Source: Chitinophaga pinensis
Lineage (GTDB): Bacteria; Bacteroidota; Bacteroidia; SXHM01
Length of the DNA: 64,000 nt
Direction: 5' to 3'
Assembly (NCBI GenBank): GCA_945889235.1
Contig: CAMDBK010000002.1
Location: 245 to 64,244, forward strand
The notes beneath the pieces are model-generated. The model ran no database searches. It was not told where the DNA came from and worked only from the letters and a program-made list of their open reading frames with translations. Of the stretch, positions 1,630 to 54,103 are shown piece by piece. How positions within the stretch are numbered: position 1 is the stretch's first letter; every line of letters begins with the position of its first letter. The position numbers and the translations under genes were made by a program.

Positions 1630-2724
1630 ATGAAAAGTATATTGTTAATCGGTAAACTGCCCCCACCTTATTACGGACCGGCAATTGCCACCCAGATTAT
1701 TCTCAATTCTACAATTAAGAACAATTTCAAACTTTCTTTTTTTGATACCAAGCTGAATAAATCGGTTGAAGGACTCGGCAAATTCGGCTGGAAAAAAATA
1801 TTCACCACACTAAATAAATACATCCTTTATTCTAATACAGTAAAAAGTGAAAAGCCTGAGGTAATTCTAATTCCCATAAGCCAGTCCACAATTGGATTTA
1901 TTAAAGATGCTGGCTATATCTGGATAGGTGTTTTAAAAGGTTCAAAAGTTGTAATCCATTTGCGCGGCAGCCAATTTTTGAACTGGTATAATGCTGCGTT
2001 TGGTATAACCAAATACTTTATTCGAAAAACCCTGCGCTCAACTTCAGGAGTTATTGTGCTTGGAAATTCACTGAGGTATTTGTTTGATTCTTTTTATAAC
2101 CCCGAAGAAATTTTTGTTGTTCCCAATGGGGGTAATTTCAAAATTCCTGTAATAGAAAAAAACAAAATAATCATAACTTACATTGCCAATTATAAGGCAT
2201 CAAAGGGTTTTGGTGTTTTTCTCGAAGCAATAGCATTATTACCTGCTGAAATAAAAAACTCAGTTGAGATTCATGCGCTTGGACAATGGTCTGATTTGAA
2301 TTTTAAAGATACCTGCGAAGCCTCTATTAAATCAAATGGGTTGAACATCATTTTTCATGACCCTAAAATTGCTGACGATAAATTTCAACTGCTTGCAAAA
2401 ACATCTGTCTTCGTTTTTACGCCTATAGCTCCCGAAGGGCATCCCTGGGTTATAGTTGAAGCAATGGCAGCAGGCTTGCCGGTTATTGCTACCGACCAGG
2501 GAGCAATAAAAGAATCAGTGATTGATAATTATAATGGTTTTATTATTCCTGCCGGCAATAGCAAAGTCTTGTGCGAAAAATTGATTCTTCTCATAAATGA
2601 CGCTGCGCTCAGAAAAAGCATGGGCGAAAATTCAAAGCTGCGTTACCTTGAAAATTTTACCGAAGATAAAATGGTAGAAAACCTCTCTGGTGTAATAAAC
2701 ACTGTATTAAACAACCATAAATAG
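1630..2724 (+). CDS. Glycosyltransferase family 4 (GT-B fold)
   Basis: 364 aa. The C-terminal motif EGHPWVIVEAMAAGLPVIATDQGAIKESVIDNYNGFII is the classic GT4 E-x7-E region. Confidence 0.85.
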   Translation: MKSILLIGKLPPPYYGPAIATQIILNSTIKNNFKLSFFDTKLNKSVEGLGKFGWKKIFTTLNKYILYSNTVKSEKPEVILIPISQSTIGFIKDAGYIWIGVLKGSKVVIHLRGSQFLNWYNAAFGITKYFIRKTLRSTSGVIVLGNSLRYLFDSFYNPEEIFVVPNGGNFKIPVIEKNKIIITYIANYKASKGFGVFLEAIALLPAEIKNSVEIHALGQWSDLNFKDTCEASIKSNGLNIIFHDPKIADDKFQLLAKTSVFVFTPIAPEGHPWVIVEAMAAGLPVIATDQGAIKESVIDNYNGFIIPAGNSKVLCEKLILLINDAALRKSMGENSKLRYLENFTEDKMVENLSGVINTVLNNHK

Positions 2725-2774
2725 GTTTCTAATCCGGGTTATTATCTATTTTTGAAAAAAAATTCAATCCATTT

Positions 2775-4895
2775 TTGGAACAACTTATACAATACCTGAA
2801 AGACGGAAAGATGCAATTACTTGAAGTTCCGTTTCCGGCTCTTCAAAGCGGTTGTGTGCTGGTGCGGAATCACTATTCATTGATCAGTGCAGGCACCGAA
2901 GGTAAAACAGTGAAGGATGCACGTCTCAGTTATATTGGTAAAGCAAGAGCAAGAAAAGATGAAGTAAAAAAAGTAGTGGACGCTGCTAAAACATTTGGTT
3001 TGCTCAACACCTACAACATGGTGATGAACAAACTGGATGCACCATCCTCTCTTGGCTATAGTTGTGCGGGTGAAGTAATTGCTGTAGCAGATAATGTTTC
3101 AGGATTTCAGGTTGGCGATAGGGTAGCTTGTGGCGGAGCAGGTGCTGTTCATGCCGAAGTTGTTTCAGTGTCCGAAAATCTCTGTGTTAAAATACCCGAT
3201 GCAGTAAATGAACAAAGTGCTGCATTTACAACACTTGCTTCTATTGCTTTGCAGGGTGTTCGTCAGGCAGATTTACGTTTAGCTGAAAATTGTGTTGTAA
3301 TTGGTTTAGGCCTGGTTGGTCAGTTAACCATTCAGTTTTTAAAAGCTGCCGGAATAAAAACCATAGGCATTGACATTGACGAAAAAATGGTTGCCTTAGC
3401 CCTGCAGAGTGGTGCAGATGTTGCCATCAACCGCAACCGCGAAGATTTAGAACAAATTATTTCTGCAGAAACAAATGGCTTTGGCGCTGATGCAGTAATT
3501 ATTACTGCCGGAACATCATCAACCGACCCGGTTGATTTAGCCGGAGCTTTATGCAGGCAAAAAGGTAAAGTAATAATTGTTGGTGCGGTGCCAACAGGTT
3601 TTAAACGTCCCAACTATTTCAAAAAAGAATTAGACCTGCGCATGTCCTGCTCTTATGGTCCCGGGCGCTACGATATGGATTATGAAGAGCTTGGCTTGGA
3701 TTACCCGATTGGTTATGTGCGCTGGACAGAAAACCGCAATATGCAGGCTTATGTAGCGTTGGTAAACGACAAAAAAATAAATACAGAACCCTTAATTACT
3801 CACGTATTTGATTTTAAGGACGCAGAAAAAGCCTACGACCTTATACTAAATCGCACCGAACCATTTGTAGGTGTTTTGCTGAAATACGATGTTTCTAAAA
3901 AACTGACCAACAAGGTTTCCTTTACTTCAAAATCATTCAGCAGTTCAAAGGCAAATGTGGGGTTAATAGGTGCCGGTTCATTCGGACAAAATTTTCTTTT
4001 ACCCGCCATGAAGGGGCATTGCAATTTTACCGGGGTAGCAACTGCGCGCGCAAACAATTCCAGAAATATAGCTGATAAATACGGCTTCAACTATTGCACA
4101 GGAAATGCTGCTGAAATTTTCAGCGATACAAAAACCGATACCGTTTTCATTGCCACCCGTCATGATTCACATGCAGCGTATGTGATTGAAGGTTTGAAAA
4201 ACGGAAAAAATATTTTTGTTGAAAAACCGCTGTGCATGAACGAAGCGCAGCTCGAAGAAATAAAACAACTGTATGAAAAAAACGGTAAACACCTGATGGT
4301 CGGTTTCAACCGCAGGTTTGCTCCGTTAGTAAAAAAACTGAAAGAAACATTTAACGGTGATTATCCCAAAGCAATTAATTACCGTATCAATGCAGGCTTT
4401 ATCCCTTCCGAACATTGGATACACGATAAAACAATTGGTGGCGGCAGAATCATTGGCGAAGTTTGTCACTTTATTGACCTGTGCAGTTTTATTGCAGGCA
4501 GCAAAATAACCTCCGTTGCTGCACAAGTCTTAAATACTTCGCCAAACCTCAACGATACTGTTGCCATTAATTTGTCATTCGCAAATGGAAGCATTGCCAG
4601 CATCTCCTATTTTTCAAATGGCAACAAAAATTTATCTAAAGAATATTTGGAGGTTTTTGGCTCGGGAATAGCCACAGTATTGGATGATTTTAAAGAACTT
4701 AAAATCTACGGGCGCGAAGAGCGAAGCCATAAATCTGCGCAGGATAAAGGACACAAAACAGAAGTAGCAGAATTTTTGAAAGCAGTAAAATCGGGTGGCC
4801 CCACGCCCATACCTTTTGAACAAACGTATTCCTCTACCCTTGCTACATTCAAAGTGCTGGAGTCAATTGCATTGAATGGGGCGGCAGTGAAATAA
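2775..4895 (+). CDS. Bi-domain oxidoreductase (N-terminal MDR/Zn-alcohol-dehydrogenase fold + C-terminal Gfo/Idh/MocA NAD-binding fold)
   Basis: 706 aa. The N-half has an MDR-like GLGLVGQ Rossmann motif. The C-half has VGLIGAGSFG plus EKPL, typical of Gfo/Idh/MocA. The TTG start is supported by a family-typical N-terminus (MEQLIQYLKDGKMQLLEVPFP). Confidence 0.8.
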   Translation: MEQLIQYLKDGKMQLLEVPFPALQSGCVLVRNHYSLISAGTEGKTVKDARLSYIGKARARKDEVKKVVDAAKTFGLLNTYNMVMNKLDAPSSLGYSCAGEVIAVADNVSGFQVGDRVACGGAGAVHAEVVSVSENLCVKIPDAVNEQSAAFTTLASIALQGVRQADLRLAENCVVIGLGLVGQLTIQFLKAAGIKTIGIDIDEKMVALALQSGADVAINRNREDLEQIISAETNGFGADAVIITAGTSSTDPVDLAGALCRQKGKVIIVGAVPTGFKRPNYFKKELDLRMSCSYGPGRYDMDYEELGLDYPIGYVRWTENRNMQAYVALVNDKKINTEPLITHVFDFKDAEKAYDLILNRTEPFVGVLLKYDVSKKLTNKVSFTSKSFSSSKANVGLIGAGSFGQNFLLPAMKGHCNFTGVATARANNSRNIADKYGFNYCTGNAAEIFSDTKTDTVFIATRHDSHAAYVIEGLKNGKNIFVEKPLCMNEAQLEEIKQLYEKNGKHLMVGFNRRFAPLVKKLKETFNGDYPKAINYRINAGFIPSEHWIHDKTIGGGRIIGEVCHFIDLCSFIAGSKITSVAAQVLNTSPNLNDTVAINLSFANGSIASISYFSNGNKNLSKEYLEVFGSGIATVLDDFKELKIYGREERSHKSAQDKGHKTEVAEFLKAVKSGGPTPIPFEQTYSSTLATFKVLESIALNGAAVK

Positions 4896-5071: not shown

Positions 5072-5385
5072 TCCTAATTTCCTAATAATCAATCAAATCA
5101 AAACTTAACGGAAACAAAATTAATAATACCATAATCAAAACTAAATCTATCATTAATAATAATAATAATAACATTTATAAAATCATAAATAACTAAATTA
5201 AAATTAGTAATACCATAAATAATAATATAATTAACAATATTAAAATTAATACTAACCATATTAATTTTAGTATCATCAAAACTAAAACTAAAACTAACTA
5301 AACTAAAAATAAGAACATCGTTAATAAAAACTTAATTAACAAAATTAAAATCAATACTAACAATAAAAAAATTACCCCTACCTTC
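5072..5385 (+). other. Almost G-free, AT-rich low-complexity tract
   Basis: Hand count gives only 6 G in 314 nt (5110, 5111, 5207, 5270, 5313, 5320). Contains (TAA)6 at 5154-5171. Degenerate internal repeats are present: 5116-5134 vs 5200-5218 at 18/19, and 5239-5256 vs 5344-5361 at 17/18. Confidence 0.9.
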
Positions 5386-28675: not shown

Positions 28676-29374
28676 TTAGGCAGTAGTTACAGTTAGATTT
28701 TGCCTGAAATCATCCATAGAAATGGCATTTTCAAGCCTGAAATTTCCTGAGCGGGTACGGCATAAATTTTCGAGGTAGGCACCCGAGTTTAAAGCATAGC
28801 CAAAATCAAACGCGAGCGATCGGATATAAGTGCCTTTGCTGCACACCACACGAAAATCTGTTTTTATTAGTTTTTCTTCTCTGCGGATTGAAACAATCTC
28901 AAATTCTTTGATGGTAATTTTACGCGCTTCCAGTTTTGCTTCTTTGCCTTTACGTGCTAATTCATAAGCACGTTCACCGTCAATTTTTTTTGCTGAAAAG
29001 ATAGGAGGCATTTGTTCTATTTCACCCAAAAACAGGTTAGTGGCAGCATAAATTTTTTCATCGGTGATATGTTCAGTCGGAAACCATTTATCAATAAGTT
29101 TTTCCAAATCATAACAAGGTGTAGTCGCTCCAATAGAAAATGTTCCGGTATATTCTTTTTCGTCTGCCTGATATTTGTCTGCGTTCTTGGTTTCTTTTCC
29201 GGTGCAAACAATCAGAACTCCGGTGGCAAGCGGGTCTAATGTTCCGGCATGACCAACTTTTATTTTGGGATTTTTGCCGATGAGGTTGCGAACTTTATGA
29301 ACTACATCAAAGGATGTCCAGCCCAAAGGTTTGTTGATAATAATAACTGCGCCTTCTCTGTAATTGACAGGCAT
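28676..29374 (-). CDS. truB: tRNA pseudouridine(55) synthase
   Basis: The KP.GWTSFDVV..VR and GHAGTLDP.A.GVL catalytic Asp motif are present. Confidence 0.95.
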   Translation of the reverse strand: MPVNYREGAVIIINKPLGWTSFDVVHKVRNLIGKNPKIKVGHAGTLDPLATGVLIVCTGKETKNADKYQADEKEYTGTFSIGATTPCYDLEKLIDKWFPTEHITDEKIYAATNLFLGEIEQMPPIFSAKKIDGERAYELARKGKEAKLEARKITIKEFEIVSIRREEKLIKTDFRVVCSKGTYIRSLAFDFGYALNSGAYLENLCRTRSGNFRLENAISMDDFRQNLTVTTA

Positions 29375-30180
29375 TACATGATTTTTAATTCGTGTCCTGT
29401 GGCAAGGAGAGCAAGCAAAAATAAACCAAGAGCAATCCTGTACCAGCCAAAAAATTTGAACCCGTATTTGGTAAGAAACGAAATGAAAAATTTGATGGCA
29501 AGCATGGCAACTATAAAGGCGACAAGGTTTCCGAAAAGAAGAATGTCGAGATTATCAGCTGTTATTTCTTTGTAGCCTTTCAGCATTTTATAAGCTGATG
29601 CGGCAAACATGGTGGGTACAGCAAGAAAGAAAGAAAACTCAGCAGCTGTTTTGCGATTTAGCTTTTGTGCCATTCCACCAATAATGGTTGCTGCTGAACG
29701 GGAAACTCCGGGTATCATGGCAATGCACTGAAACAAACCGATGTAAAGCGCTTTTTTGTAATCCACTTTTTCTTCGGGATTTTCTCCCTCTCCTTTGGAG
29801 AGGGTTGGGGAGAGGCTAAACCATTTGTCAACAAACAAAAGAATAACACCGCCTATTAATAAGGAGGAAGCAACCACCCAAACATTTTCCAGTAAGCTGT
29901 CAATAAAATCACCGAGTAGAAAGCCAATTACAGCAGCAGGAATAAAGGCAACCAAAAGTTTGTAATAAAAATCAAGCGACTGAAAGAAGCGTTTCCAGTA
30001 CAAAACCACAACTGAAAGAATTGCTCCAAACTGAATATTGACTTCAAAGATTTTAACGAACGGACTTTCGTTGATGCCCATGAATGCCGAAGCAATAATC
30101 ATGTGTCCTGTTGAGGAAACCGGAATAAATTCGGTTATTCCTTCTACAATGGCGAGAATGAGGGCTTGGAGGAAAGACAA
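29374..30180 (-). CDS. uppP: Undecaprenyl-diphosphate phosphatase
   Basis: [14 protein letters not shown] and [10 protein letters not shown] are BacA/UppP signatures. Its stop overlaps the truB start by 1 nt. Confidence 0.95.
29784..29816. repeat. GEG-type palindromic element, copy inside uppP (33 nt, in frame)
   Basis: ctccctctcctttggagagggttggggagaggc. It closely matches 49332-49364 and is translated as [12 protein letters not shown] in UppP. Confidence 0.8.
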
Positions 30181-38651: not shown

Positions 38652-38659
38652 TATATTTG
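38652..38659 (+). promoter_or_regulatory. Candidate -7 box (TATATTTG)
   Basis: TAnnTTTG match. Its last base is the G of the track's GTG start, which argues for the downstream TTG start at 38701. Confidence 0.45.
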
Positions 38660-38700
38660 TGCACAATGTTTCTAATTACAATTTATTAAGGGAGTACATT

Positions 38701-41700
38701 TTGAAAGCAAAATTAGTTCTCGCTTTTAGTATCTGCCTTGGCTTTCAGTCATTTTATTCAGTAAATGCACAAACTGGTTGTGATATTGCAGCAATCAGAG
38801 CAGCATTTGCAGCTCCCGGCTACTATACAGAATTAACCGGTGTTGCGGGGCAACCCTGCAGCATGTATTTCATTAATAATCTTTCACAAGATGCTGCAAC
38901 CAGCGAAGCGCAGGCGCAGACATTGGGTGCACACACTGTAGTATTTAATGATGCTGCCGAAAACACCAATGTTGTTGCAGCACTGAATGCAATCGGTTTT
39001 CCGGGTGGCTCTGTTTGGATTGGTTATCACCGAACAGGAACAGGTGCGGGTACTTTTTATGCATTAGATGGAACAACAGGTAATTTTCCTGTACCTTCAG
39101 GAGGAGGGGTTTATCAAAATTGGGCAGGGGGTGAGCCAAATAATAATGGGTATCAGTCAGGGTGCTTTCCATGGTTTGACTGTGGTTCTTGTAGTGATTC
39201 ATATCGTTGTGACTGGGGCGAACAATGTGTTCAGATTTATTCAGATGGGCAATGGAATGATTTACCTTGCGACCGTACAAGCATTTCATTAATTGAGGTT
39301 AACCTTTGCCCCCAAACTACTGCTGATCCCGATATTACAATCTGTGAGGGAGATCCTTTAACACTAAACACTTCTAATTCTTTATTGGGTTCTGGCCCAT
39401 ATACTTATTCTTGGGCACCAACTTTATTTATACCCAGCCCAAATACCCAGAGTGTAGATGCATACCCTGATGTAACCACAACATTTACTGTGACTACAAC
39501 AGATCGTTACACCTGTCAAGGAACTTCAGACATGATAGTAACGGTAAATCCTGCACCTACACCTGATGCAGGGCCTGATGTTACTATTTGTCCGGGTTCA
39601 TCAACTCAACTTAACGCTTCTGGAGGTGCAACTTATTCATGGGCTCCAACAACAGGTTTAAGCAACCCTAACATTGCAAATCCAATTGCCTCCCCTGCAA
39701 GCACAACTGCTTACTTTGTTACTGTTACTGCCGCAGGCGGCTGTACTCAGGTAGATTTTGTTACAGTGTCAGTTTCAATGGTTCTAAATGTAAATGCTGG
39801 TGCAGATGCATCATCTTGTGCAGGACAAGGAACAACATTAAACGCAACCGGTGCAACTAATTATACATGGACGCCAGCAACAGGACTTAGCGATCCGAAT
39901 ATTTTTAATCCTGTTGCTGCTCCGGCAACAACAACAACCTACACAGTTACAGGCACTGATGGAAATGGTTGTTCTGGTACAGATGCTGTAGTAGTTACTG
40001 TTAACAATGCCCCCACGGCAAATGCAGGAGCTGATGCTGCTGTTTGCGTTGGATTATCAACTACGCTAAATGGTACAGGTGGTGTTTCATATTCATGGTC
40101 ACCGGTAGCAGGATTAAGCGACCCTGCTATATTTAACCCTGTTGCTACTTCTGCTGCAACAACAACGTATACACTTACCGTAACAGATGCAAACGGTTGT
40201 ACAGATACTGATGATATGATTGTAACGGTTAATCCGTTGCCTCCTGCTTCTGCGGGGCCAGATATGCCTGTTTGCACAGGGTCTTCAGTAACGATTACTG
40301 CATCGGGCGGAACACAATATTTATGGACTCCTGTTACTGAACTTAGCAATGCGAATGTAGCTGCTCCGGTTTGCACTCCAACTGCTGCCAGAACTTATAC
40401 TGTAACTGTTACTGATGTTAACGGATGCGTTGCTACCGATGATATGGATGTAACAATTAACCCGCTACCGATTGCTAATGCCGGTGCTGATGTAACAATT
40501 TGCCAGAATTCAACAACTACACTTGGAGCTTCAGGTGGTGTAAGTTATTCATGGAGTCCGGTTACAGGATTAAGTGATCCATTAATAGTTAATCCGGATG
40601 CAAGTCCTGCTGCTACTACTACTTATACGGTAACTGCAACCGATGCAAATTCATGTTCTTCAACAGATGATGTGGATGTGATTGTTACTCCATCTGCTCC
40701 GGTTAATGCGGGAATTGATGGAGAAGCCTGCCTAGGAGGTTCTGTTTCCCTGAGTGCTACAGGAAACGGAGTATCGTTTTCATGGAGTCCTGCATTGGGA
40801 TTAGACAACGCTAATATTGCGACACCTGTTGCGACACCTGCAAGCACTACACAATATACTGTTACCATGACGGATGCTAATAACTGCACCAGCTCGGATG
40901 ATGTAACAGTAACTATTAATCCAATTCCTGTGGCTGCTTTTTCTGCAGCTTCGGTTTGCAATGGTATACCAACAGTTTTTACAAATCAAAGTACTGTTAG
41001 TTCGGGAACTATAGCCACCTATAACTGGGATTTTGGTGATGGTAATACTTCAGCAGTAACAAGCCCAAGCAACACGTATTCACTTCCGGGAACTTATTCT
41101 GTTCAGCTTGATATTGTTTCTGATAAAGGCTGCGTGAATTCAACTACACAAAATATTACAGTTTATCCGTTACCGGTTGTGGATTTTGAAGCGGTACCGA
41201 CAAGTGGTTGTGCACCGCTGGATGTACAATTGAATGACCTCAGCACCATTGCATCGGGCAATAATGTTTCGTGGTTGTGGAATATTGAATCAGTGGGAAC
41301 AGTGAATGGGCAAACTACCTCACAAAGCTTTTCAAATGTAGGCTTGTATGATGTTACATTAACAGTTACTTCTGATCAAGGCTGCCAAACTATACTGACA
41401 CAAACTGATTTTATTACGGTTGATCCAAAACCTGTGGCTCAGTTTTTTGCTAATCCTGATTACACCGAAATACTTTATCCGGAAGTTGTTTTTACAGACC
41501 TTTCAACAGGTGCTCCAACTCAATGGAACTGGGATTTCGGAACAGGTGATGTTTCTACAGTGCAAAGCCCAACATATAGCTTTCCTGATACAGGAGTTTT
41601 TACTGTTCTTCTGGAAATTTTCAATCAGTATGGATGCAGCGATACAGTAAGTCACACCGTTGTTATTACTCCGTCATTCACTATTTATGTTCCTAATGCT

Positions 41701-41955
41701 TTTACTCCCGATGGCGATGGAATAAATGATGTTTTTCTGCCAAAAGGAATGGGCTGGAGAGATTATGAACTGCGGGTTTACAGCCGTTCCGGAACCCAGA
41801 TTTTCAGCACTTTTGACCCTTTAGAAGGTTGGGACGGAACTGTAAATCATAAAGGAAAAATTACCATAGCCGATGTATATGTTTGGCGCATTTATGTGCG
41901 AGACAAAAATAATCGCAAACAGGATTATAAGGGAATTGTTACGCTGGTGAGATAA
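38701..41955 (+). CDS. T9SS-secreted adhesin: C-type lectin domain + 7 tandem approx 80-aa Ig-like repeats + 3 PKD domains + type-B (gliding-motility-associated) C-terminal domain
   Basis: Signal peptide (M)KAKLVLAFSICLGFQSFYSVNAQ from an in-frame TTG. CTLD motifs EPN (39133-39141) and WND (39253-39261). Repeats follow the pattern AGxDxxxCxGxSxxLxAxGGxxYSWSPxxGLS. WDFGDG PKD motifs. The C-terminal VPNAFTPDGDGINDVF...W is the type-B T9SS CTD. Confidence 0.85.
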   Translation: MKAKLVLAFSICLGFQSFYSVNAQTGCDIAAIRAAFAAPGYYTELTGVAGQPCSMYFINNLSQDAATSEAQAQTLGAHTVVFNDAAENTNVVAALNAIGFPGGSVWIGYHRTGTGAGTFYALDGTTGNFPVPSGGGVYQNWAGGEPNNNGYQSGCFPWFDCGSCSDSYRCDWGEQCVQIYSDGQWNDLPCDRTSISLIEVNLCPQTTADPDITICEGDPLTLNTSNSLLGSGPYTYSWAPTLFIPSPNTQSVDAYPDVTTTFTVTTTDRYTCQGTSDMIVTVNPAPTPDAGPDVTICPGSSTQLNASGGATYSWAPTTGLSNPNIANPIASPASTTAYFVTVTAAGGCTQVDFVTVSVSMVLNVNAGADASSCAGQGTTLNATGATNYTWTPATGLSDPNIFNPVAAPATTTTYTVTGTDGNGCSGTDAVVVTVNNAPTANAGADAAVCVGLSTTLNGTGGVSYSWSPVAGLSDPAIFNPVATSAATTTYTLTVTDANGCTDTDDMIVTVNPLPPASAGPDMPVCTGSSVTITASGGTQYLWTPVTELSNANVAAPVCTPTAARTYTVTVTDVNGCVATDDMDVTINPLPIANAGADVTICQNSTTTLGASGGVSYSWSPVTGLSDPLIVNPDASPAATTTYTVTATDANSCSSTDDVDVIVTPSAPVNAGIDGEACLGGSVSLSATGNGVSFSWSPALGLDNANIATPVATPASTTQYTVTMTDANNCTSSDDVTVTINPIPVAAFSAASVCNGIPTVFTNQSTVSSGTIATYNWDFGDGNTSAVTSPSNTYSLPGTYSVQLDIVSDKGCVNSTTQNITVYPLPVVDFEAVPTSGCAPLDVQLNDLSTIASGNNVSWLWNIESVGTVNGQTTSQSFSNVGLYDVTLTVTSDQGCQTILTQTDFITVDPKPVAQFFANPDYTEILYPEVVFTDLSTGAPTQWNWDFGTGDVSTVQSPTYSFPDTGVFTVLLEIFNQYGCSDTVSHTVVITPSFTIYVPNAFTPDGDGINDVFLPKGMGWRDYELRVYSRSGTQIFSTFDPLEGWDGTVNHKGKITIADVYVWRIYVRDKNNRKQDYKGIVTLVR

Positions 41956-41997
41956 AGCCTCATCCCCGACCCTTCTCCAAAGGAGAAGGGAGCAGAG
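41956..41997. repeat. GEG-type palindromic element, intergenic copy between convergent genes
   Basis: agcctcatccccgacccttctccaaaggagaagggagcagag. Stem of 9 bp, CCCTTCTCC-aaa-GGAGAAGGG. It differs by one base from 49272-49312. Confidence 0.85.
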
Positions 41998-41999
41998 TT

Positions 42000-43337
42000 T
42001 TACAACAACTCATTCGCCAAATTCGCCAACTCACTTCTCTCACCTTTCTCTAACGTAATGTGCGCGCAAATCGGGTGATTGCGGATTTTATCTATCAGGT
42101 AAGAAAGCCCGTTACTCTGCGTATCTAAGTAAGGCGTATCAATCTGAAAAATATCACCGGTAAAAATAATTTTGGTGTTTTCACCAGCGCGGGTAATAAT
42201 GGTTTTTACTTCGTGCGGAGTAAGATTTTGTGCTTCATCCACAATAAAGAAAATATTGGAAAGGCTGCGCCCGCGAATGTATGCAAGTGGTGTGATGACT
42301 AATTTTTCGTTATCCACCAAATCCTGAATTTTTTTGAATTCTTTCCCACCTTCAGGAAACTGGTTCTGAATAAATTTCAGATTATCCCACAGCGGTTCCA
42401 TGTATGGATTGATTTTAGATTTGATGTCGCCCGGCAGAAAACCAATGTCTTTATTACTAAGCGGAACAATTGGTCGCGCTAAATAAATCTGGCGGAATTC
42501 CCTTTTTTGCTCCAGCGCACCTGCCAGTGCCAGTAATGTTTTTCCGGTTCCTGCAACACCTTGTATAGTTACTAAACTAATGCGCGGATTCATAATTGCA
42601 TTCAATGCAAAAACCTGTTCTGCATTCAATGCTTTAACTCCAAACGCACTGTTTTTTTCAACGCGATCCAGCATTTTTGATTCCGGATTATAGCAAGTCA
42701 TTGCTGACGTTTTTCCGTTGCGCAAAATGTAGTAGTGATTGTTGAGCGGCTCTTTTATTCCCGCTTCTTCTGCTTCACAACTTCCGGTTTCGTAAACTTT
42801 ATTGATTGCTTCGGTGGTGCTTTTTTCAACAATTGTTCTGCCGGTGTAAAGCGTATCAACATTTTTTATTTTTCCTGTTTCAAAATCTTCCGCGGGAAGA
42901 TTTAATGATTTTGCTTTTAGGCGAAGATTGATGTCTTTTGAAACCAGAATTACTTTGCGATCAGGAAATTCATTCATCAGTGACAAAGCTGAATTCAGAA
43001 TTTTGTGATCAGCTTTTTTCTCGCCAAAAATTTTGTCGGCATCTACGGTGCTGTACCCGTTCATCACTACTTTAAACTTTCCTTTTTTGTCGGAACCATT
43101 CAGGTTTACCCACTCCTGCAACGTGTGGTGTTCAGAGAGTCCATCCACCATGCGAATAAATTCGCGGGCAGAAAAATTCTTCATGTCATTGCCCTTTTTG
43201 AAGTTGTCTAACTCCTCAAGAACTGTTATTGGAATAGCGACATCATGTTCCTGAAAACTTTGGATTGCATTGTGGTCGTAGAGGATTACTGATGTGTCGA
43301 GGACGAATATTTTTTTGTTTTTGTCTTTTGGCGGCAT
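42000..43337 (-). CDS. PhoH2-type protein (N-terminal PIN domain + PhoH ATPase)
   Basis: FVLDTSVILYD (PIN) and GVAGTGKT Walker A plus the PhoH C-terminal region. I moved the start to MPPKDKNKKIF. Confidence 0.85.
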   Translation of the reverse strand: MPPKDKNKKIFVLDTSVILYDHNAIQSFQEHDVAIPITVLEELDNFKKGNDMKNFSAREFIRMVDGLSEHHTLQEWVNLNGSDKKGKFKVVMNGYSTVDADKIFGEKKADHKILNSALSLMNEFPDRKVILVSKDINLRLKAKSLNLPAEDFETGKIKNVDTLYTGRTIVEKSTTEAINKVYETGSCEAEEAGIKEPLNNHYYILRNGKTSAMTCYNPESKMLDRVEKNSAFGVKALNAEQVFALNAIMNPRISLVTIQGVAGTGKTLLALAGALEQKREFRQIYLARPIVPLSNKDIGFLPGDIKSKINPYMEPLWDNLKFIQNQFPEGGKEFKKIQDLVDNEKLVITPLAYIRGRSLSNIFFIVDEAQNLTPHEVKTIITRAGENTKIIFTGDIFQIDTPYLDTQSNGLSYLIDKIRNHPICAHITLEKGERSELANLANELL

Positions 43338-43447
43338 ACTCGATGCTGGGGGGATGGTACGCAACGAAAGTATGTTTTGGAATCACAGCAAAAAGAATCA
43401 ATCGACTCGATTTTTAAACAAGTTACTGTTACTAAATATTTTTTCGG

Positions 43448-47644: not shown

Positions 47645-47678
47645 CACCCCTCTCCCAACCTCTCCCCCAAAGGGAGAG
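47645..47678. repeat. GEG-type palindromic element variant, immediately after the MFP stop codon
   Basis: cacccctctcccaacctctcccccaaagggagag, with a local 7-bp hairpin CTCTCCC/GGGAGAG. It is the inverted partner of 47780-47817. Confidence 0.85.
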
Positions 47679-47703
47679 AAGCAAAGAAATAAGAAATAAA
47701 TTT

Positions 47704-50685
47704 ATGGAATACAATCATAAAGAGGTTGAACATTACTGGCAGGAATACTGGAAAAAAAATAAAACCTATGCAGTCAAAACCCCCTCTCCCCTTGGGGGAG
47801 AGGACAGGAGAGGGGTGCCAAAATATTATGTGCTGGACATGTTCCCTTATCCTTCCGGTGCGGGCTTGCACGTGGGACATCCGCTGGGCTACATTGCTTC
47901 CGATATTTATTCACGATACAAACGCTCACAGGGGTTTAATGTATTGCATCCGATGGGCTATGATTCATTTGGCTTGCCTGCGGAACAATATGCAATTCAA
48001 ACGGGACAACATCCTGCAGTAACAACCGAACAAAACATTAAACGCTACCGCGAACAATTAGATAAACTTGGTTTTTCATTTGACTGGGACAGACAGGTGA
48101 AAACTTCTGATCCGAGTTATTACAAATGGACTCAATGGATATTTCTGCAACTCTTTAATTCGTGGTATAATCCGGAGACAAATAAAGCGGAAGCGATTGA
48201 AACTTTGATTCAGAAATTGGAGACTGAAAGAACTAACTGGAAAACTTTATCTGAAAAAGAAAAGAGCGATGAACTGATGGAATATCGCATTGCTTATTTG
48301 GGTGAAGCATTTGTGAACTGGTGTCCTGCTTTGGGAACTGTGTTAGCGAATGATGAAGTGAAAGACGGTGTTTCGGAACGTGGTGGCTATCCTGTGGAGC
48401 GCAAGCTGATGAAGCAATGGAGCATGCGAATCACTGACTATGCAGAAAGATTACTGACCGGTTTGGATTCTATTGACTGGAGTGAATCAATTAAAGAAGC
48501 GCAACGGAATTGGATTGGAAAAAGCGTGGGCGCTTCGCTGCAATTTAAAATGGACAATGGAGAATGGACAATTGAAGTGTTTACTACGCGACCAGATACA
48601 CTTTTTGGAATTACTTTTTTAACGCTTGCTCCCGAGCACGAATTGGTTTCTAAAATCACAACAGAAGAAAATAAACAAGCTATTGAAGCCTATTTAAATT
48701 ACGCCAAAAATCGCAGTGAGCGTGAGCGTCAGGCTGATGTAAAAAAAATAACAGGACAGTTTACAGGTGCTTATGCAATTCATCCTTTTACCGGAAAACA
48801 AATTCCGGTGTGGGTGGGAGATTATGTTCTGGCAGGTTACGGAACAGGCGCTGTGATGGCTGTTCCGGGTGGCGACCAGCGCGACTGGAGTTTTGCAAAA
48901 CATTTTAGATTGCCTATTATTCCTGTGATTGAGAATAGCGACATCGAAAAAGAAGCCAACGAAAGCAAGGAAGGAAAAATGATCAACTCAGATTTTCTGA
49001 ATGGCTTGCAGGTGAAAGAAGCAATCAAAAGAATAATTGCTGAAATAGAAAAGCGCGGACTTGGAAAAGGCAAAATAAATTTCCGTTTGCGTGATGCTGC
49101 CTTTGGCCGCCAACGCTATTGGGGCGAGCCTATTCCTATTTATTACAAGGATGGAATTCCTTACGCAGTGGATGAAAAAGACCTGCCCGTTGTATTGCCT
49201 GAAGTGGATAAATTTTTACCAACCGAAGATGGTGAACCACCATTGGCGCGCGCCAAAGACTGGACATATACGCCTCATCCCCAACCCTTCTCCAAAGGAG
49301 AAGGGAGCAGAGACGCAAGCACAGCTAACGACTCCCTCTCCTTTGGAGAGGGTCGGGGTGAGGCTTATCCTCTCGAATCTACCACTATGCCCGGCTGGGC
49401 AGGAAGCTCATGGTATTATCTGCGCTACATGGACCCGCACAATGACAAAGAGTTTGTTTCCAAAGCAGCAGCAGATTACTGGAAAGATGTTGATTTTTAT
49501 TTAGGTGGCTCTGAACACGCAACAGGACATTTATTGTATGTACGCTTCTGGACAAAATTTTTGAAAGACCGCGGATTTATTTCTATTGAAGAGCCTGCAA
49601 AGAAGCTGGTAAATCAGGGGATGATACAGGGGGTTTCACAATTTATTCATCCATTGATTTTAAGCCCAGGACCTATAATGGACGATAATGTTGATTATCT
49701 GGAACCAAATTATTTCCCACGGGTTTTTATTTCGAAATCATGGGCCGATGATTTGCATGATGGAAATTTATCTATAGAAAGACAAACACTAATTAATAAT
49801 GAATTAGAAAAAATAAAACTTGATTTAGAAAAGAAATATCCCATCAAGCGAGCGTCATTAAATTATTCCTTAAGAGTAGGGGCATATAGAGTTGATATAA
49901 AATTTGTCAATAATGGAATACTAAATATCGAAGAGGTAAGAGATTGGAATGAGGAAACCAAAACCGCAATATTTATTACAGATGAAGAAGATGAAATAAA
50001 ATGCACTTCTGAAGTTGAAAAAATGTCCAAGTCAAAATGGAATGTTGTAAATCCAGATGAGTTGGTAGAAAAATACGGAGCAGATACTTTACGCATGTAT
50101 GAAATGTTCCTTGGTCCGCTTGAGCAAAGCAAGCCCTGGAACACCAATGGAATTACAGGAGTTTCAGGATTTCTGAAAAAATTCTGGAAGCTGTATCAAA
50201 ATGTTTCTGAAGAAAAAGCAAGCAAAGCAGAATTAAAAGTTCTTCACAAAACCATTAAGAAAATCACAGATGATATTGAGAAACTTTCGTTCAATACCTG
50301 TGTGAGCACCTTTATGATTTGCGTGAATGAACTCACCGATTTGAGATGCAACAAGCGTGAAATCTTAGAACCTTTGGTTGTTTTGATTGCACCTTTAGCT
50401 CCGCACATTGCTGAAGAGTTGTGGAAAAACTTCGGTCACACTGAAAGCGTAACGATTGCAAAATGGCCAGAATACAAAGAGGAATACACCGTTGAGAATT
50501 CATTCAGCTATCCTGTTTCATTCAATGGTAAAACACGTTTCTTTCAGGAGTTTGATGCTTCACTTTCAAAAGAAGATGTGGAAAAAGAAGTGATGGCACT
50601 GGAGCAAACACAGAAATACTTAGAAGGCAAACAACCGAAAAAAGTGATTGTTGTTCCGAAGAAGATAGTGAATATTGTTGTGTAA
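47704..50685 (+). CDS. leuS: Leucine-tRNA ligase
   Basis: Full-length LeuRS: HVGHPLGY (HIGH), CP1 editing domain, KMSKSK. It carries three repeat-element copies in frame. Confidence 0.97.
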   Translation: MEYNHKEVEHYWQEYWKKNKTYAVKTPSPLGGEDRRGVPKYYVLDMFPYPSGAGLHVGHPLGYIASDIYSRYKRSQGFNVLHPMGYDSFGLPAEQYAIQTGQHPAVTTEQNIKRYREQLDKLGFSFDWDRQVKTSDPSYYKWTQWIFLQLFNSWYNPETNKAEAIETLIQKLETERTNWKTLSEKEKSDELMEYRIAYLGEAFVNWCPALGTVLANDEVKDGVSERGGYPVERKLMKQWSMRITDYAERLLTGLDSIDWSESIKEAQRNWIGKSVGASLQFKMDNGEWTIEVFTTRPDTLFGITFLTLAPEHELVSKITTEENKQAIEAYLNYAKNRSERERQADVKKITGQFTGAYAIHPFTGKQIPVWVGDYVLAGYGTGAVMAVPGGDQRDWSFAKHFRLPIIPVIENSDIEKEANESKEGKMINSDFLNGLQVKEAIKRIIAEIEKRGLGKGKINFRLRDAAFGRQRYWGEPIPIYYKDGIPYAVDEKDLPVVLPEVDKFLPTEDGEPPLARAKDWTYTPHPQPFSKGEGSRDASTANDSLSFGEGRGEAYPLESTTMPGWAGSSWYYLRYMDPHNDKEFVSKAAADYWKDVDFYLGGSEHATGHLLYVRFWTKFLKDRGFISIEEPAKKLVNQGMIQGVSQFIHPLILSPGPIMDDNVDYLEPNYFPRVFISKSWADDLHDGNLSIERQTLINNELEKIKLDLEKKYPIKRASLNYSLRVGAYRVDIKFVNNGILNIEEVRDWNEETKTAIFITDEEDEIKCTSEVEKMSKSKWNVVNPDELVEKYGADTLRMYEMFLGPLEQSKPWNTNGITGVSGFLKKFWKLYQNVSEEKASKAELKVLHKTIKKITDDIEKLSFNTCVSTFMICVNELTDLRCNKREILEPLVVLIAPLAPHIAEELWKNFGHTESVTIAKWPEYKEEYTVENSFSYPVSFNGKTRFFQEFDASLSKEDVEKEVMALEQTQKYLEGKQPKKVIVVPKKIVNIVV
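47780..47817. repeat. GEG-type palindromic element variant inside the leuS 5' end
   Basis: ccccctctccccttgggggagaggacaggagaggggtg. Translated as PSPLGGEDRRGV, just upstream of the HIGH region. Confidence 0.85.
49272..49364. repeat. Head-to-head dimer of GEG-type elements inside leuS (93 nt = 31 codons)
   Basis: 49272-49312 is a forward copy, 1 mismatch to 41957-41997. 49332-49364 is an inverted copy resembling 29784-29816. Translated as PHPQPFSKGEGSRDASTANDSLSFGEGRGEA. Confidence 0.9.
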
Positions 50686-50689
50686 ATCA

Positions 50690-50752
50690 CGTCACCCTGA
50701 ATTTATTTCAGGGTCTTAAGAGTGAGATGCTGAAACAAGTTCAGCATGACGA
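50690..50752. repeat. Double-hairpin repeat B1 at the convergent leuS / PAP2-like gene junction
   Basis: cgtCACCCTGAAtttatTTCAGGGTcttaagagtgagATGCTGAActtgTTCAGCATgacga-type structure, read as 50690-50752. Likely a bidirectional terminator. Confidence 0.75.
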
Positions 50753-50755
50753 GAA

Positions 50756-51367
50756 CTACACAAAGAAGACAATCCCGGCCATCAACGCAGTTCCTACAAC
50801 AAATCCGGAATACACCTGTGCAGGCGTGTGTGCATAGAGTTTCAGTCGCGCATAACCAACAAATCCTGCAAGCAGAACAACGAGATAAATCGGCAGAATA
50901 AAATCTGCACCCAAGCGGATTGACAAGCCCAGCAGGCTACCGATAACTCCGCCAACAGCAATCATGTGAATACTTATTTTCCAAATCATTGTGATGAAAA
51001 AACAAATCACGATGGATAAAATTGTTCCGAGTAACAATAAATAAACTATTCCGGGAAGCGCGAGTTTGCGCAGCAAATAATACAACGCAAAATAGAGAAT
51101 AATGGAAACGAGAAAAGGAATTCTGCGCTCCGATGCTTCAGGCATTTCAAGGCTGGAAATAATTCCGCGTTTAATAAGAGTGAGGAAAATCAACGTGGGC
51201 AGCACAACAGTAAACGTGATGAACATTATGTAAATTGCAATCTTAGCTTCGCTGCTGATGCTGAAAGCAATGTAGGTATTGCTGTTGAACAAAATCAACA
51301 AGGTGAGCAGCGGCATCATCAACGGCTGAAAAATGATTGAAATTATTTTGGCAAATTTTATTTCCAT
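50756..51367 (-). CDS. PAP2-superfamily-like membrane protein
   Basis: Six hydrophobic spans and degenerate PAP2 motifs (ERRIP; SIH; ARLKLYAHTPAQVYSG). I moved the start to MEIKF because the track extension runs into a palindrome. Confidence 0.5.
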   Translation of the reverse strand: MEIKFAKIISIIFQPLMMPLLTLLILFNSNTYIAFSISSEAKIAIYIMFITFTVVLPTLIFLTLIKRGIISSLEMPEASERRIPFLVSIILYFALYYLLRKLALPGIVYLLLLGTILSIVICFFITMIWKISIHMIAVGGVIGSLLGLSIRLGADFILPIYLVVLLAGFVGYARLKLYAHTPAQVYSGFVVGTALMAGIVFFV

Positions 51368-51376
51368 AGGTTTTGT

Positions 51377-51445
51377 GCCACAGATTACACAGATTTTCAC
51401 TGATTAATTCGAAGCAAATCTGTGTGAATTTGTGTAATCTGTGGC
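51377..51445. repeat. Heptamer-built hairpin D1 (ACAGATT units; outer 15-bp perfect stem GCCACAGATTACACA)
   Basis: gccacagattacacagattttcactgattaattcgaagcaaatctgtgtgaatttgtgtaatctgtggc. Confidence 0.8.
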
Positions 51446-51453
51446 TACTATTT

Positions 51454-52230
51454 TCATTTTAGTTCAAAATCATCGGCATCCATTGCAGCAGGAAACTTCT
51501 CACGGTACTCCTGCAAAAAATTCCATGTAAGCGTAATAGTTTCATGTTTATTTTCATTCTGTTTTATTGTGCTCATTTTTTCTCCGAGTGGATTATAAAC
51601 TACACTGTCGCCTGAATAATCAACATCGTATCCGTCAGCTCCGATGCGGTTTACAGCAAGAACATAACTTTGGTTTTCAACCGCACGCGCAGGAAGTAAT
51701 GTGTTCCATGCAAGGCTTCTTCTTGATGGCCAGTTGGCAACATAAATCAAAACATCATAATCAAAATTTTTATTTCTGCTCCAAACAGGGAATCGTAAAT
51801 CGTAACAAATCAGCGGACAAATTTTCCAACCTTTTAATGTTGTAATCAATTTGTTTTCTCCTGCGGTAAAATGATTTTGTTCGTTTGCCATTCGGAAAAG
51901 ATGGCGTTTATCATACGTTTGAAATTTTCCGTCAGGCTGCATCCAGATTAAGCGATTATAGTTTTTTCCGTTTTCGGTAATCATCAGACTGCCGGTAATC
52001 ACGCAGTTTTTTTCTTGCGCTTTTTCTTTCAGCCATTCTATTGATTTACCACTCATACTTTCAGCAACCGCAGTGTTCATTGTAAAACCTGTGCTGAACA
52101 TTTCAGGTAAAATTATCAAGTCTGTTTGCTCTTTAACTTTGTTCAGTATTTCATTAAACATGGAAATATTCTCTTCCACATTTTCCCAGTGAAGTTGTGT
52201 TTGAACCGATGTTATTTTTAAATCTTCCAT
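51454..52230 (-). CDS. Carbon-nitrogen hydrolase family protein (omega-amidase/YafV-like)
   Basis: E-K-C nitrilase-superfamily pattern: ILPEMF, RLIWMQPDGK..YDKRHLF, ICPLICYDLRFP. Confidence 0.85.
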   Translation of the reverse strand: MEDLKITSVQTQLHWENVEENISMFNEILNKVKEQTDLIILPEMFSTGFTMNTAVAESMSGKSIEWLKEKAQEKNCVITGSLMITENGKNYNRLIWMQPDGKFQTYDKRHLFRMANEQNHFTAGENKLITTLKGWKICPLICYDLRFPVWSRNKNFDYDVLIYVANWPSRRSLAWNTLLPARAVENQSYVLAVNRIGADGYDVDYSGDSVVYNPLGEKMSTIKQNENKHETITLTWNFLQEYREKFPAAMDADDFELK

Positions 52231-54037: not shown

Positions 54038-54040
54038 TTT

Positions 54041-54103
54041 TCGTCATGCTGAACTCGTTTCAGCATCTTAATTATGAGACCCTGAAACAAGTTCAGGGTG
54101 ACG
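54041..54103. repeat. Double-hairpin repeat B2 (inverted copy of B1) at the convergent slyD / DUF5686 junction
   Basis: tcgtcatgctgaactcgtttcagcatcttaattatgagaccctgaaacaagttcagggtgacg. The reverse complement of B1 aligns along its whole length, with differences mainly in loops and linker. Confidence 0.8.

Follow-up and report, generated by a model that had tools for sequence, protein, structure and literature searches.

Introduction

Palindromic repeats that lie in frame in essential genes have been regarded as a curiosity ever since the Rickettsia palindromic elements (RPEs), which were reportedly introduced by Ogata et al. in 2000. RPE-1-type elements are single units of about 100-150 bp, and we know of no enzyme partner for RPEs. 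The present analysis concerns a comparable repeat in a stretch of 64,000 nucleotides (64 kb) from an assembly of Chitinophaga pinensis (GCA_945889235.1, contig CAMDBK010000002.1, positions 245 to 64,244 of the forward strand), here called the window, in which a 93-nt segment lies in frame within leuS, the gene encoding leucyl-tRNA synthetase (LeuRS). The segment is a dimer of palindromic units that is lacking in the closest LeuRS orthologues, and its two halves correspond to the ends of cassettes encoding a DUF559 endonuclease domain in Bacteroidota. It is probably a non-autonomous, two-ended copy of this cassette family, devoid of an open reading frame (ORF) of its own, mobilised in trans and without a function for the host, comparable in form to a MITE (a miniature transposable element with inverted repeats) or to a REPIN, the paired form of repetitive extragenic palindromes (REPs).

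Like RPEs, the leuS units are dispersed palindromes found both between genes and in frame in functional, often essential, genes, where they are translated as extra surface peptides and where close relatives differ in their presence or absence, as is also the case here. An earlier inspection of the DNA without database searches (the sequence-only reading) had invoked RPEs as an analogy. The analogy is a fair one, but membership among the RPEs does not follow, given the size, the missing CGTC tag and the phylum: by the descriptions of length and tag the leuS units are set apart (33-36 nt, a dimer of 93 nt, untagged, in a Bacteroidia host). A further difference is that units of the leuS type form the two ends of an endonuclease cassette.

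REPINs and their REP-associated tyrosine transposases (RAYTs) were reportedly described by Bertels and Rainey in 2011. The leuS units share with REPs the form of imperfect palindromes of 20-40 nt dispersed in many copies, the frequency of inverted dimers, the location after genes and between convergent genes, the minority of intragenic copies, often dimers that encode 20-30 aa and occur in tRNA synthetase genes among others, and a single-copy enzyme gene flanked by the same repeats. They differ in that the unit consensus has neither a GTAG nor a CGTC tetranucleotide, in that the flanked enzyme is a PD-(D/E)XK protein of the DUF559 family and not an HUH Y1 transposase, and in that the intragenic share is far higher (about 27%), the enzyme gene itself being carried in frame inside host proteins. 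The leuS element thus works like RPEs and GTAG/CGTC REPs, yet is a member of neither. The RAYTs of REPs and REPINs are treated by Quentin 2018 (PMC6006769). For the GTAG/CGTC REPs, Di Nocera 2013 (PMC3733652) describes intragenic copies of which more than half are dimers or grouped, encoding 20-30 aa, some of them in tRNA-synthetase genes; in-frame REP dimers have thereby been formally described in other phyla, and RPE-4 and RPE-6 are CGTC-tagged REPs (PMC3733652).

Results

Anatomy of the leuS dimer

The host ORF is identified as LeuRS by its Pfam domains and by thousands of homologues, and carries three unit copies in frame, including the two halves of the dimer (Table 1). The left unit is built as GCCTCATCCCCAACCCTTCTCC-AAA-GGAGAAGGGAG, with a 9-bp hairpin stem (49285-49293 with 49297-49305) and the translation PHPQPFSKGEGS, while the right unit, read as its reverse complement, is GCCTCACCCCGACCCTCTCC-AAA-GGAGAGGGAG, with an 8-bp stem (49334-49341 with 49345-49352) and the translation SLSFGEGRGEA. 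Across the dimer the protein reads ...PHPQPFSKGEGSRDASTANDSLSFGEGRGEA... (in the ORF list ...TYTPHPQPFSKGEGSRDASTANDSLSFGEGRGEAYPLE... and ...DWTYTPHPQPFSKGEGSRDASTANDSLSFGEGRGEAYPLESTTMPGW...), and peptides encoded by the insert include DASTANDSLSFGEGR and GEAYPLESTTMPGWAGSSWYYLR. As RNA, the hairpin of each half is predicted at about -17 to -19 kcal/mol, and the whole dimer at -61.3 kcal/mol (z -7.6; as DNA -31.1 kcal/mol, z -6.6) as a single long hairpin, in which a stem of ~35 bp formed between both units would draw the junctions together. Positions 49272-49312 are identical to the intergenic copy at 41957-41997 in 40 of 41 bases, and positions 49332-49370 are 90% identical to 29784-29822 in uppP.

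These comparisons bear out most of what the sequence-only reading had claimed of the segment, namely the single-nucleotide difference between the left half and the intergenic copy, the resemblance of the right half to the copy in uppP, the 8-9-bp hairpin in each half with outer arms that can pair, and the nature of the whole as a head-to-head dimer of a dispersed palindromic unit, of which more copies were found inside and between genes. Its length of exactly 31 codons is likewise correct, while the interval given for these codons (49272-49364) is off by one base, the codons being 49273-49365.

Table 1. Features of the window and locations of related cassettes in other genomes.
Feature	Position or locus	Strand	Basis or remark
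Host gene leuS, leucyl-tRNA synthetase, 993 aa	47704..50685	+	ORF list; Pfam tRNA-synt_1, tRNA-synt_1_2 and Anticodon_1 on identical protein
Left dimer unit (type 1), 36 nt, GCCTCATCCCCAACCCTTCTCCAAAGGAGAAGGGAG	49272..49307	+	sequence, nhmmer
Dimer spacer, 24 nt, CAGAGACGCAAGCACAGCTAACGA, translated RDASTAND	49308..49331	+	sequence
Right dimer unit, inverted, 33 nt, CTCCCTCTCCTTTGGAGAGGGTCGGGGTGAGGC	49332..49364	-	sequence, nhmmer
Divergent unit copy TPSPLGGEDRRGV, in frame near leuS N-terminus	47780..47817	-	repeat search, nhmmer, orthologue alignment
Divergent unit copy, spacer between efflux-adaptor gene and leuS ATG	47646..47686	+	repeat search, nhmmer
Type-1 single unit, intergenic	41957..41997	+	fills gap of convergent ORFs 38659..41955(+) and 42000..43364(-)
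Single unit, in frame in uppP/bacA (ORF 29374..30180, minus)	29784..29816	-	nhmmer, sequence
Cassettes at second LeuRS site, after residue 285	L119, L068, P0016, P0037, P0054, L152, L178		
Cassette in methylmalonyl-CoA mutase/MeaB fusion	L012		
Cassette in CoA-transferase	L121		
Cassette at TruB C-terminus, isolate Mucilaginibacter galii	L126 (JBHUJR010000001.1) 2263-3528		
Cassette between halves of UvrD-like helicase, Hymenobacter radiodurans CP037922	L127		
Free-standing DUF559 genes flanked by units	L071, L128		

Insertion into a variable loop of LeuRS

An alignment of 31 close LeuRS homologues (A1) shows KDWKYKGQYDYESTTMPGW at the site in P0002 and P0003, which are the nearest orthologues (86-89% identity) and lack the N-terminal insert too; these two and most other Bacteroidia LeuRS have just KDWKYKGQYDYES at the position of the dimer. 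As the closest orthologues are without it, the leuS dimer is a real insertion, as had been proposed. In keeping with that proposal, no homologous peptide free of palindromy was found in orthologues from distant Bacteroidota, and further genomic copies of the unit were found. The empty site (TGGAAATACAAAGGACAATACGATTACGAA) is TGG AAA TAC AAA GGA CAA TAC GAT TAC GAA in the closest orthologue, on locus L002, and the filled allele is TGG ACA TAT AC|GCCTC...GAGGC|T TAT CCT CTC GAA. The extent of 93 nt claimed for the segment holds, while the net gain over the empty allele comes to 87 nt (29 aa), the insert having replaced ~9 nt of the loop (KGQ) that was there before. Locus L002 has no unit in its 22.9 kb, and the three other sites of the leuS region are also empty there. 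No microhomology was consistent across the four pairs of empty and filled sites: the string CAAAGGA is common to the empty LeuRS site and the hairpin loop but is missing at the other sites.

The dimer site aligns with the CPKCGG short hairpin of Thermus thermophilus LeuRS (1H3N, around residues 476-493), a segment which we take to be the second zinc knuckle of that enzyme. By this alignment the site would be a variable, surface-exposed hairpin segment with the dimer at the tip of the beta-hairpin, which agrees with the tolerant surface loop suggested earlier. The site was placed in this way because the AlphaFold2 model of the 993-aa LeuRS, computed from the 31-sequence alignment for mapping of the insert, was too poor to be usable (mean predicted local distance difference test score (pLDDT) 48, predicted template modelling score (pTM) 0.28).

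Variation was also seen elsewhere in LeuRS. Window positions 49650-50000 (residues about 650-770) are hypervariable among orthologues that are otherwise 85-90% identical, with a nucleotide identity of 52-78% and many insertions and deletions 60-160 codons to the right of the insert, and it looks as if a whole inserted domain had been swapped or were evolving fast. In alignment A1, several relatives, not including the window LeuRS, carry a small recurrent insert after the position of residue 173-177 of the window protein (VGSWKIEGD / AGSWKLDGDK / SWKLEGDKK), which may represent a further mini-element family.

Copies in the window

A profile search of the window recovered exactly six copies of the unit, the dimer halves being two of them (nhmmer E 1e-9 to 2e-5). 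The core pattern has four matches against 0.01 expected, and polypyrimidine hairpins have 22 matches against 0.04 in shuffled sequences, confined to the six copy sites; these statistics, together with those of nhmmer, exclude chance. The copies listed by the sequence-only reading were all recovered, but its inventory had been incomplete, the two at 47780-47817 and 47646-47686 being absent from it. Each of the four sites outside the dimer can be compared with a shorter counterpart. The copy in uppP is a loop insertion relative to BacA of Mucilaginibacter galii, the gap between the convergent PKD and PhoH genes is 44 nt in the window against 4 nt in L002, the spacer before the leuS ATG is 60 nt against 6 nt in L002, and the N-terminal leuS copy amounts to a net gain of 24 nt over empty orthologues.

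A phylum-wide family of units

The pattern search and the tabulation of intergenic and intragenic copies that had been suggested on the basis of the window reveal a dispersed family with a biased reading frame. At least 120 stretches with the 27-29-nt core were obtained in an exact-pattern scan of one genome per species, the taxa among the matches listed being Flavobacterium, Mucilaginibacter, Chitinophagaceae, Prevotellaceae, Paludibacter, Capnocytophaga, Cytophagales, Ignavibacteriales/Kapaibacteria and others. An alignment of 123 copies shows sharp unit edges between unrelated flanks, with the consensus NCCTC[A/T](C)CCCCRACCC(C)TCTCC-AAA-GGAGA(G)GGGAG, which may also be written NCCTCWCCCCRACCC(C)TCTCC-AAA-GGAGA(G)GGGAG, i.e. 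NCCTCWCCCCRACCC(C)TCTCCAAAGGAGA(G)GGGAG. Most of these units are single (84), 29 have a head-to-head partner 8-95 nt downstream and one has a tail-to-tail partner, so that the dimer in leuS has the standard arrangement. In most cases the partner belongs to a variant that differs systematically from the first unit, and the left end of a dimer can therefore be told from its right end.

Another 56 copies came from a scan of metagenomes for the exact type-1 unit, and the coding census covers 180 units. Forty-nine of them (27%) lie within open frames of at least 150 codons, with the hairpin loop in codon phase 0, 1 and 2 in 32, 5 and 12 cases, respectively. The unit is free of stops in five of the six frames, and the favoured frame reads S-K-G-E-G or, in the opposite orientation, S-F-G-E-G; the Gly-Glu-Gly core that had been noted in both orientations of the window is thus the preferred one, in 32 of the 49 coding copies. 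Hosts confirmed by Pfam include isoleucyl-tRNA synthetase (IleRS), another LeuRS (Mucilaginibacter gilvus), alpha-2-macroglobulin, multicopper oxidase, Lhr helicase and an aldolase-dehydrogenase fusion. Rfam gave no family in the window at gathering thresholds and none in seven cassette loci at E<=1, a tRNA scan found nothing, and no paper with the repeat sequence was found in the literature searched.

Contigs assigned to metagenome-assembled genomes of Candidatus Saccharibacteria, Hyphomicrobiales and Bifidobacterium breve also carry exact units (L026, L071, L082/L096); these are probably mis-binned Bacteroidota contigs, or else a sign of transfer outside the phylum. In IMG/VR the unit is present on just 11 of 2.9 million predicted viral contigs, in 12 stretches (L188-L199), which may represent prophages or host carry-over, or an occasional phage vehicle; with just 12 such stretches, carriage by phages is rare at best.

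DUF559 cassettes with the same ends

In the LeuRS of locus L093, exactly at the dimer site, a left unit (TPHPQPLSKGEGS) is followed by ~190 aa and an inverted right unit (TPLSPGEGSGVR). Among the 120 closest LeuRS, 11 have a PF04480 (DUF559) domain between two unit-encoded peptides at this position, and LeuRS proteins of 1047-1177 aa with a full DUF559 domain in frame occur in many Bacteroidia (P0016, P0025, P0028, P0037 and others). The loops that carry DUF559 lie after residues 285 and 523 of the window protein (loci L093, L119, L152, L178 and L187); other hosts and free-standing forms are listed in Table 1. Inverted units bracket DUF559 in all 27 recovered occurrences, the unit variants including a GC-rich version in Hymenobacter and a CCCCCAAATGGGGG version in Paludibacter, and DUF559 was found nine times beside seeded units. 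The DUF559 ORF of the cassettes measures about 375-410 nt and encodes a domain of ~115 aa, and in coding cassettes it is in the frame of the host in every case. In L126 the truB frame continues without a stop through the unit, DUF559 and the second unit, while the record annotates DUF559 as a separate gene of 176 aa.

As DNA, the cassette of L152 consists of CCTCATCCCCGACCCTTCTCCAAAGGAGAAGGGAG, 407 nt encoding DUF559, and GACTCCCTCTCCTCTGGAGAGGGCTGGGGTGAGGCT, with a right end that reads GACTCCCTCTCC..GGGGTGAGGCT; that of L185 is equivalent, with an interior of 374 nt. Except for its first base, the left unit of the window dimer is the left end of the L152, L178 and L185 cassettes (35 nt identical). 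The right unit corresponds to the right ends in L152 and L185, and the dimer spacer takes the position of the DUF559 ORF. The sequence-only reading, right in the insertion, the dimer, the loop and the core, was incomplete in this respect, the halves being the left and right ends of a DUF559 cassette family.

The domain matches PF04480 with E-values of 1e-32 to 1e-36 (Pfam), and a DUF559 profile compared to the Protein Data Bank (PDB) finds 3hrl (1.6e-29) and the homing endonuclease I-Bth0305I (3r3p, 2.5e-5). The catalytic D, E-x-D-G-x-x-H and D-x-x-R residues are invariant although the copies are just 42-66% identical. By these criteria the DUF559 domain is a Vsr-like PD-(D/E)XK nuclease of predicted activity. 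Its clades follow the subfamily of the flanking units, as expected of an enzyme and its cognate ends. A profile search yields more than 7,500 relatives, mostly annotated as small 'endonuclease domain-containing' proteins, and no paper was found in the literature searched that links DUF559 to repeats or to in-frame insertion or carriage.

Annotation of these proteins is partly misleading. The dimer-bearing LeuRS P0005 is named 'Valine--tRNA ligase' at NCBI, and short DUF559 ORFs are misnamed 'leucyl-tRNA synthetase', 'methylmalonyl-CoA mutase', 'methionine synthase' or 'RecG' (P0122, P0129, P0139, P0173, P0193, P0209 and P0216), presumably on account of database hosts that contain the domain in frame. 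The misnamed ORFs hint at metH and recG as further hosts.

Occupancy and spread of the LeuRS sites

Among the 120 closest LeuRS, the dimer site is empty in 90, holds units only in 19 and DUF559 in 11. Inserts made up of units only come from several unrelated subfamilies, and tandem arrays are found among them. A match over the whole length of the window dimer is found at another place, after LeuRS residue 832, on L187 (the contig of P0016, LeuRS 84% identical), where the spacer is also conserved (CAGAGAG..ACAGCTAACGAC) and where the same leuS has a full cassette at site 285; the spacer of the same-site dimers in L004 and L005 is variable. By this comparison the dimer appears to behave as one mobile unit.

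The LeuRS proteins that share the dimer (window, P0004 and P0005) are monophyletic in none of 200 bootstraps, and the empty sisters are P0011 for P0004 (96%) and P0012 for P0005 (97.5%). The right-flank change of YDYE to YPLE is common to the window, P0004 and P0005. Over the 20 codons that follow the insert on its right, the filled alleles are 85-90% identical to each other and 78% to their empty sisters, whereas gene-wide identity has the reverse pattern, filled alleles being closer to the empty sisters; no signal of a recombination tract was found in the left flank of the insert. This suggests a spread of the filled allele by recombination, or a repeated site-specific gain, the tract being short and the evidence modest. 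At each LeuRS site the DUF559 lineages form a polyphyletic set interspersed with those from other hosts, so that the hot spots represent repeated independent invasions of tolerant loops and not one homing lineage, possibly with a shared target preference.

Other repeats in the window

A second and unrelated family is a CGTC-tagged double hairpin of ~63 nt, CGTCACCCTGAAyTTrTTTCAGGGTC-N10-ATGCTGAAACAAGTTCAGCATGACG, at 50686-50750 and 54040-54102. Both copies lie exactly between convergent ORFs, the former starting right after the leuS stop codon. An element of this family is also in frame in the leuS of relatives at site 285, where it is translated RHPELVSGSDNEMLKQVQHD (P0005, P0010, P0017 and P0019; DNA checked in L005). 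The family fits the CGTC REP superfamily of PMC3733652. In addition, an AT-rich direct repeat with a periodicity of 21 nt (also 15/27 nt) occupies 5101-5354 in nine overlapping copies, and a 29-nt inverted repeat, GCCACAGATTACACAGATTTTCACTGATT / AATCTGTGTGAATTTGTGTAATCTGTGGC (86% complementary, 11-nt gap), is present at 51377-51445, reaching across the start of ORF 50756..51400(-) and the short stretch that separates it from ORF 51454..52230(-).

Discussion

A probable ORF-less copy of a nuclease cassette

The DUF559 cassette family, of which the leuS segment is probably a copy, has a full form composed of a left hairpin unit, an ORF for the ~115-aa Vsr-like PD-(D/E)XK domain and a right hairpin unit in inverted orientation. 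Its members, whether full cassettes, dimers or solo units, insert into intergenic gaps and also, in frame and free of stops, into tolerant surface loops of housekeeping proteins. The dimer itself may owe its mobility to a DUF559 nuclease acting in trans from a gene elsewhere in the genome, which would cause breaks at the palindromic units or at their targets, followed by homing-like recombinational copying. The unit-encoded peptides would serve as flexible linkers that render in-frame carriage harmless, and transcription and translation of the dimer would give LeuRS a tolerated Pro/Gly/Glu/Ser-rich loop of ~31 aa, with no dedicated role for the host.

Several points weigh against this explanation. 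The element is known from its sequence alone, while its movement, the action of the nuclease and the peptide are predicted. No target-site duplication is present in four pairs of empty and filled sites, a few target bases being replaced at each, so that neither classical transposition nor clean homing fits, and the polyphyly of the nuclease at each site argues against simple site-specific homing. No DUF559 gene was found in the 64-kb window or in L001-L005, and a trans-acting partner in the genome must therefore be assumed. The 24-nt spacer has no convincing homology to cassette interiors, so that the dimer could be the deletion remnant of a cassette or the cassette a dimer entered by a nuclease gene. 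To our knowledge, PD-(D/E)XK nucleases alone are not transposases. Moreover, Y1 transposases of the RAYT type with atypical flanking structures are present in Bacteroidetes (PMC6006769), and RAYTs are excluded here only by a crude HUH...Y motif scan, without a match in 1.5 Mb of unit-bearing loci.

Alternative explanations

The main alternative, though a less likely one, is that the units are an independent REP/REPIN-like family, moved by another enzyme such as a Bacteroidetes RAYT or maintained by the host (e.g. through stabilisation of transcript 3'-ends between convergent genes), and that DUF559 genes are secondary parasites homing into dimers, of which the one in leuS would be an unoccupied target. 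Such a family could account for the excess of single units over dimers and cassettes (84 of 123), for the polyphyly of the nuclease lineages at each site, for the dimers themselves, as inverted REP dimers are the normal REPIN form, and for the two window copies that lie exactly between genes, one of them between a convergent pair, a location typical of REPs (PMC3733652). Homodimers of the I-Bth0305I type recognise pseudopalindromic targets (PMC3239194), which suits a palindromic dimer, and the RAYT subclasses 2.4 and 2.6 of Bacteroidetes have atypical flanks (PMC6006769). However, the unit has no GTAG or CGTC tag, the scanned loci contain no HUH...Y ORF whereas DUF559 recurs beside seeded units, the left and right units of dimers differ systematically and match the left and right cassette ends, and the co-variation of DUF559 clades with unit subfamily is what cognate ends would produce.

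That the inserted peptide is an adaptive module specific to LeuRS, an interaction or regulatory loop with incidental palindromy, is highly improbable. The insert is in frame and stop-free and has been kept in three lineages with the common YPLE flank, but it is missing in the closest orthologues and in 90 of 120 relatives, the unit also occurs in intergenic gaps and unrelated proteins, the same dimer is found at another LeuRS position in L187, and many unrelated unit subfamilies occupy the same loop. There is just as little to recommend removal of the insert before LeuRS matures, as a novel hairpin-bounded intervening sequence or an intein-like element. The ~35-bp stem between the units does bring the junctions together; the net lengths, however, are multiples of three (87, 96, 105 and 24 nt), the inserts have no stops and the reading-frame bias is significant, which indicates that they are translated and not removed. 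The DUF559 ORF in the host frame of every coding cassette points the same way, as do the missing Cys/Ser/Thr at the N-terminal and His-Asn at the C-terminal junction, and neither a Pfam Hint domain nor an Rfam intron or RNA family was matched. An artefact of assembly or binning, conceivable as the source is an assembly of an uncultured organism, is already effectively refuted, the chance of it being negligible: a gene for the identical LeuRS recurs, together with all four copies of the leuS region, on a contig from an independent ENA metagenome (L001), homologous dimers are found in JGI and NCBI assemblies, and cassettes occur in the isolate genomes of Mucilaginibacter galii and Hymenobacter radiodurans CP037922.

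Relation to other mobile elements

The likeness of the dimer to MITEs lies in the inverted ends which this short ORF-less element shares with a longer coding one (L152, L185), and in its dispersal within and between genomes. It differs in the lack of a target-site duplication in the four empty/filled comparisons, in ends that are themselves self-complementary hairpins, and in a parent cassette that encodes only the DUF559 nuclease domain and no recognised transposase. Fungal mitochondria contain GC-rich palindromic clusters and double-hairpin elements. As with the leuS units, these are small GC-rich hairpins in an AT-richer genome that are sometimes in frame in protein genes (compare PMC7218506), but their location in organelles, the lack of an associated nuclease cassette and their unrelated sequences set them apart.

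The cassette nuclease is homologous to the EDxHD (Vsr-like) homing endonucleases (PMC3239194; PMC2677866), as shown by the match to 3r3p and the intact catalytic residues, and in both systems conserved positions of essential genes are recurrently occupied in non-sister lineages. The homology to I-Bth0305I/Vsr concerns full cassettes only, not the ORF-less dimer of the window. The known EDxHD enzymes are housed by group I introns or by inteins, or else stand free, whereas most cassettes are an in-frame domain of the host bounded by hairpins, some free-standing cassettes (L071, L128) forming an overlap; a further difference is the presence of several nuclease lineages at one site. Inteins differ in their junctions, which are ...WTY|TPHP... 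and ...GEA|YPLE... here, and Pfam finds just the LeuRS domains plus PF04480 and PF18741 where present.

Together, these features raise a broader proposal, put forward tentatively and with slightly less than even confidence. The hairpin-bounded DUF559 cassettes may form an undescribed class of selfish element, in which a Vsr-like homing or transposing endonuclease persists without an intron or intein, in frame in loops of essential proteins, with LeuRS, IleRS, TruB, UvrD and methylmalonyl-CoA mutase as the proposed hosts. The ends would act both as cognate DNA sites of the nuclease and as Pro/Gly-rich linkers, and dimers and solo units would be MITE-like progeny dispersed throughout the phylum Bacteroidota. 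For the cassette system as a whole, the chance of its being a new class of selfish element is substantial.

Implications

In-frame palindromic repeats were known before; new are the link to DUF559 and the recurrent hot spots in LeuRS, for which no description was found in the literature searched. For this repeat there is now a concrete candidate for a partner, namely a small DUF559 nuclease with the same two ends around it in every case, and there are defined hot spots in two LeuRS loops, which are occupied in roughly a quarter of related genomes. In practice, the inserts inflate and fragment gene calls and mislead annotation, and they mark permissive insertion sites in aminoacyl-tRNA synthetases. 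The system thereby opens to test how such repeats move, why they are tolerated in proteins and whether a homing-type endonuclease, translated as part of its host protein, can persist without a splicing element.

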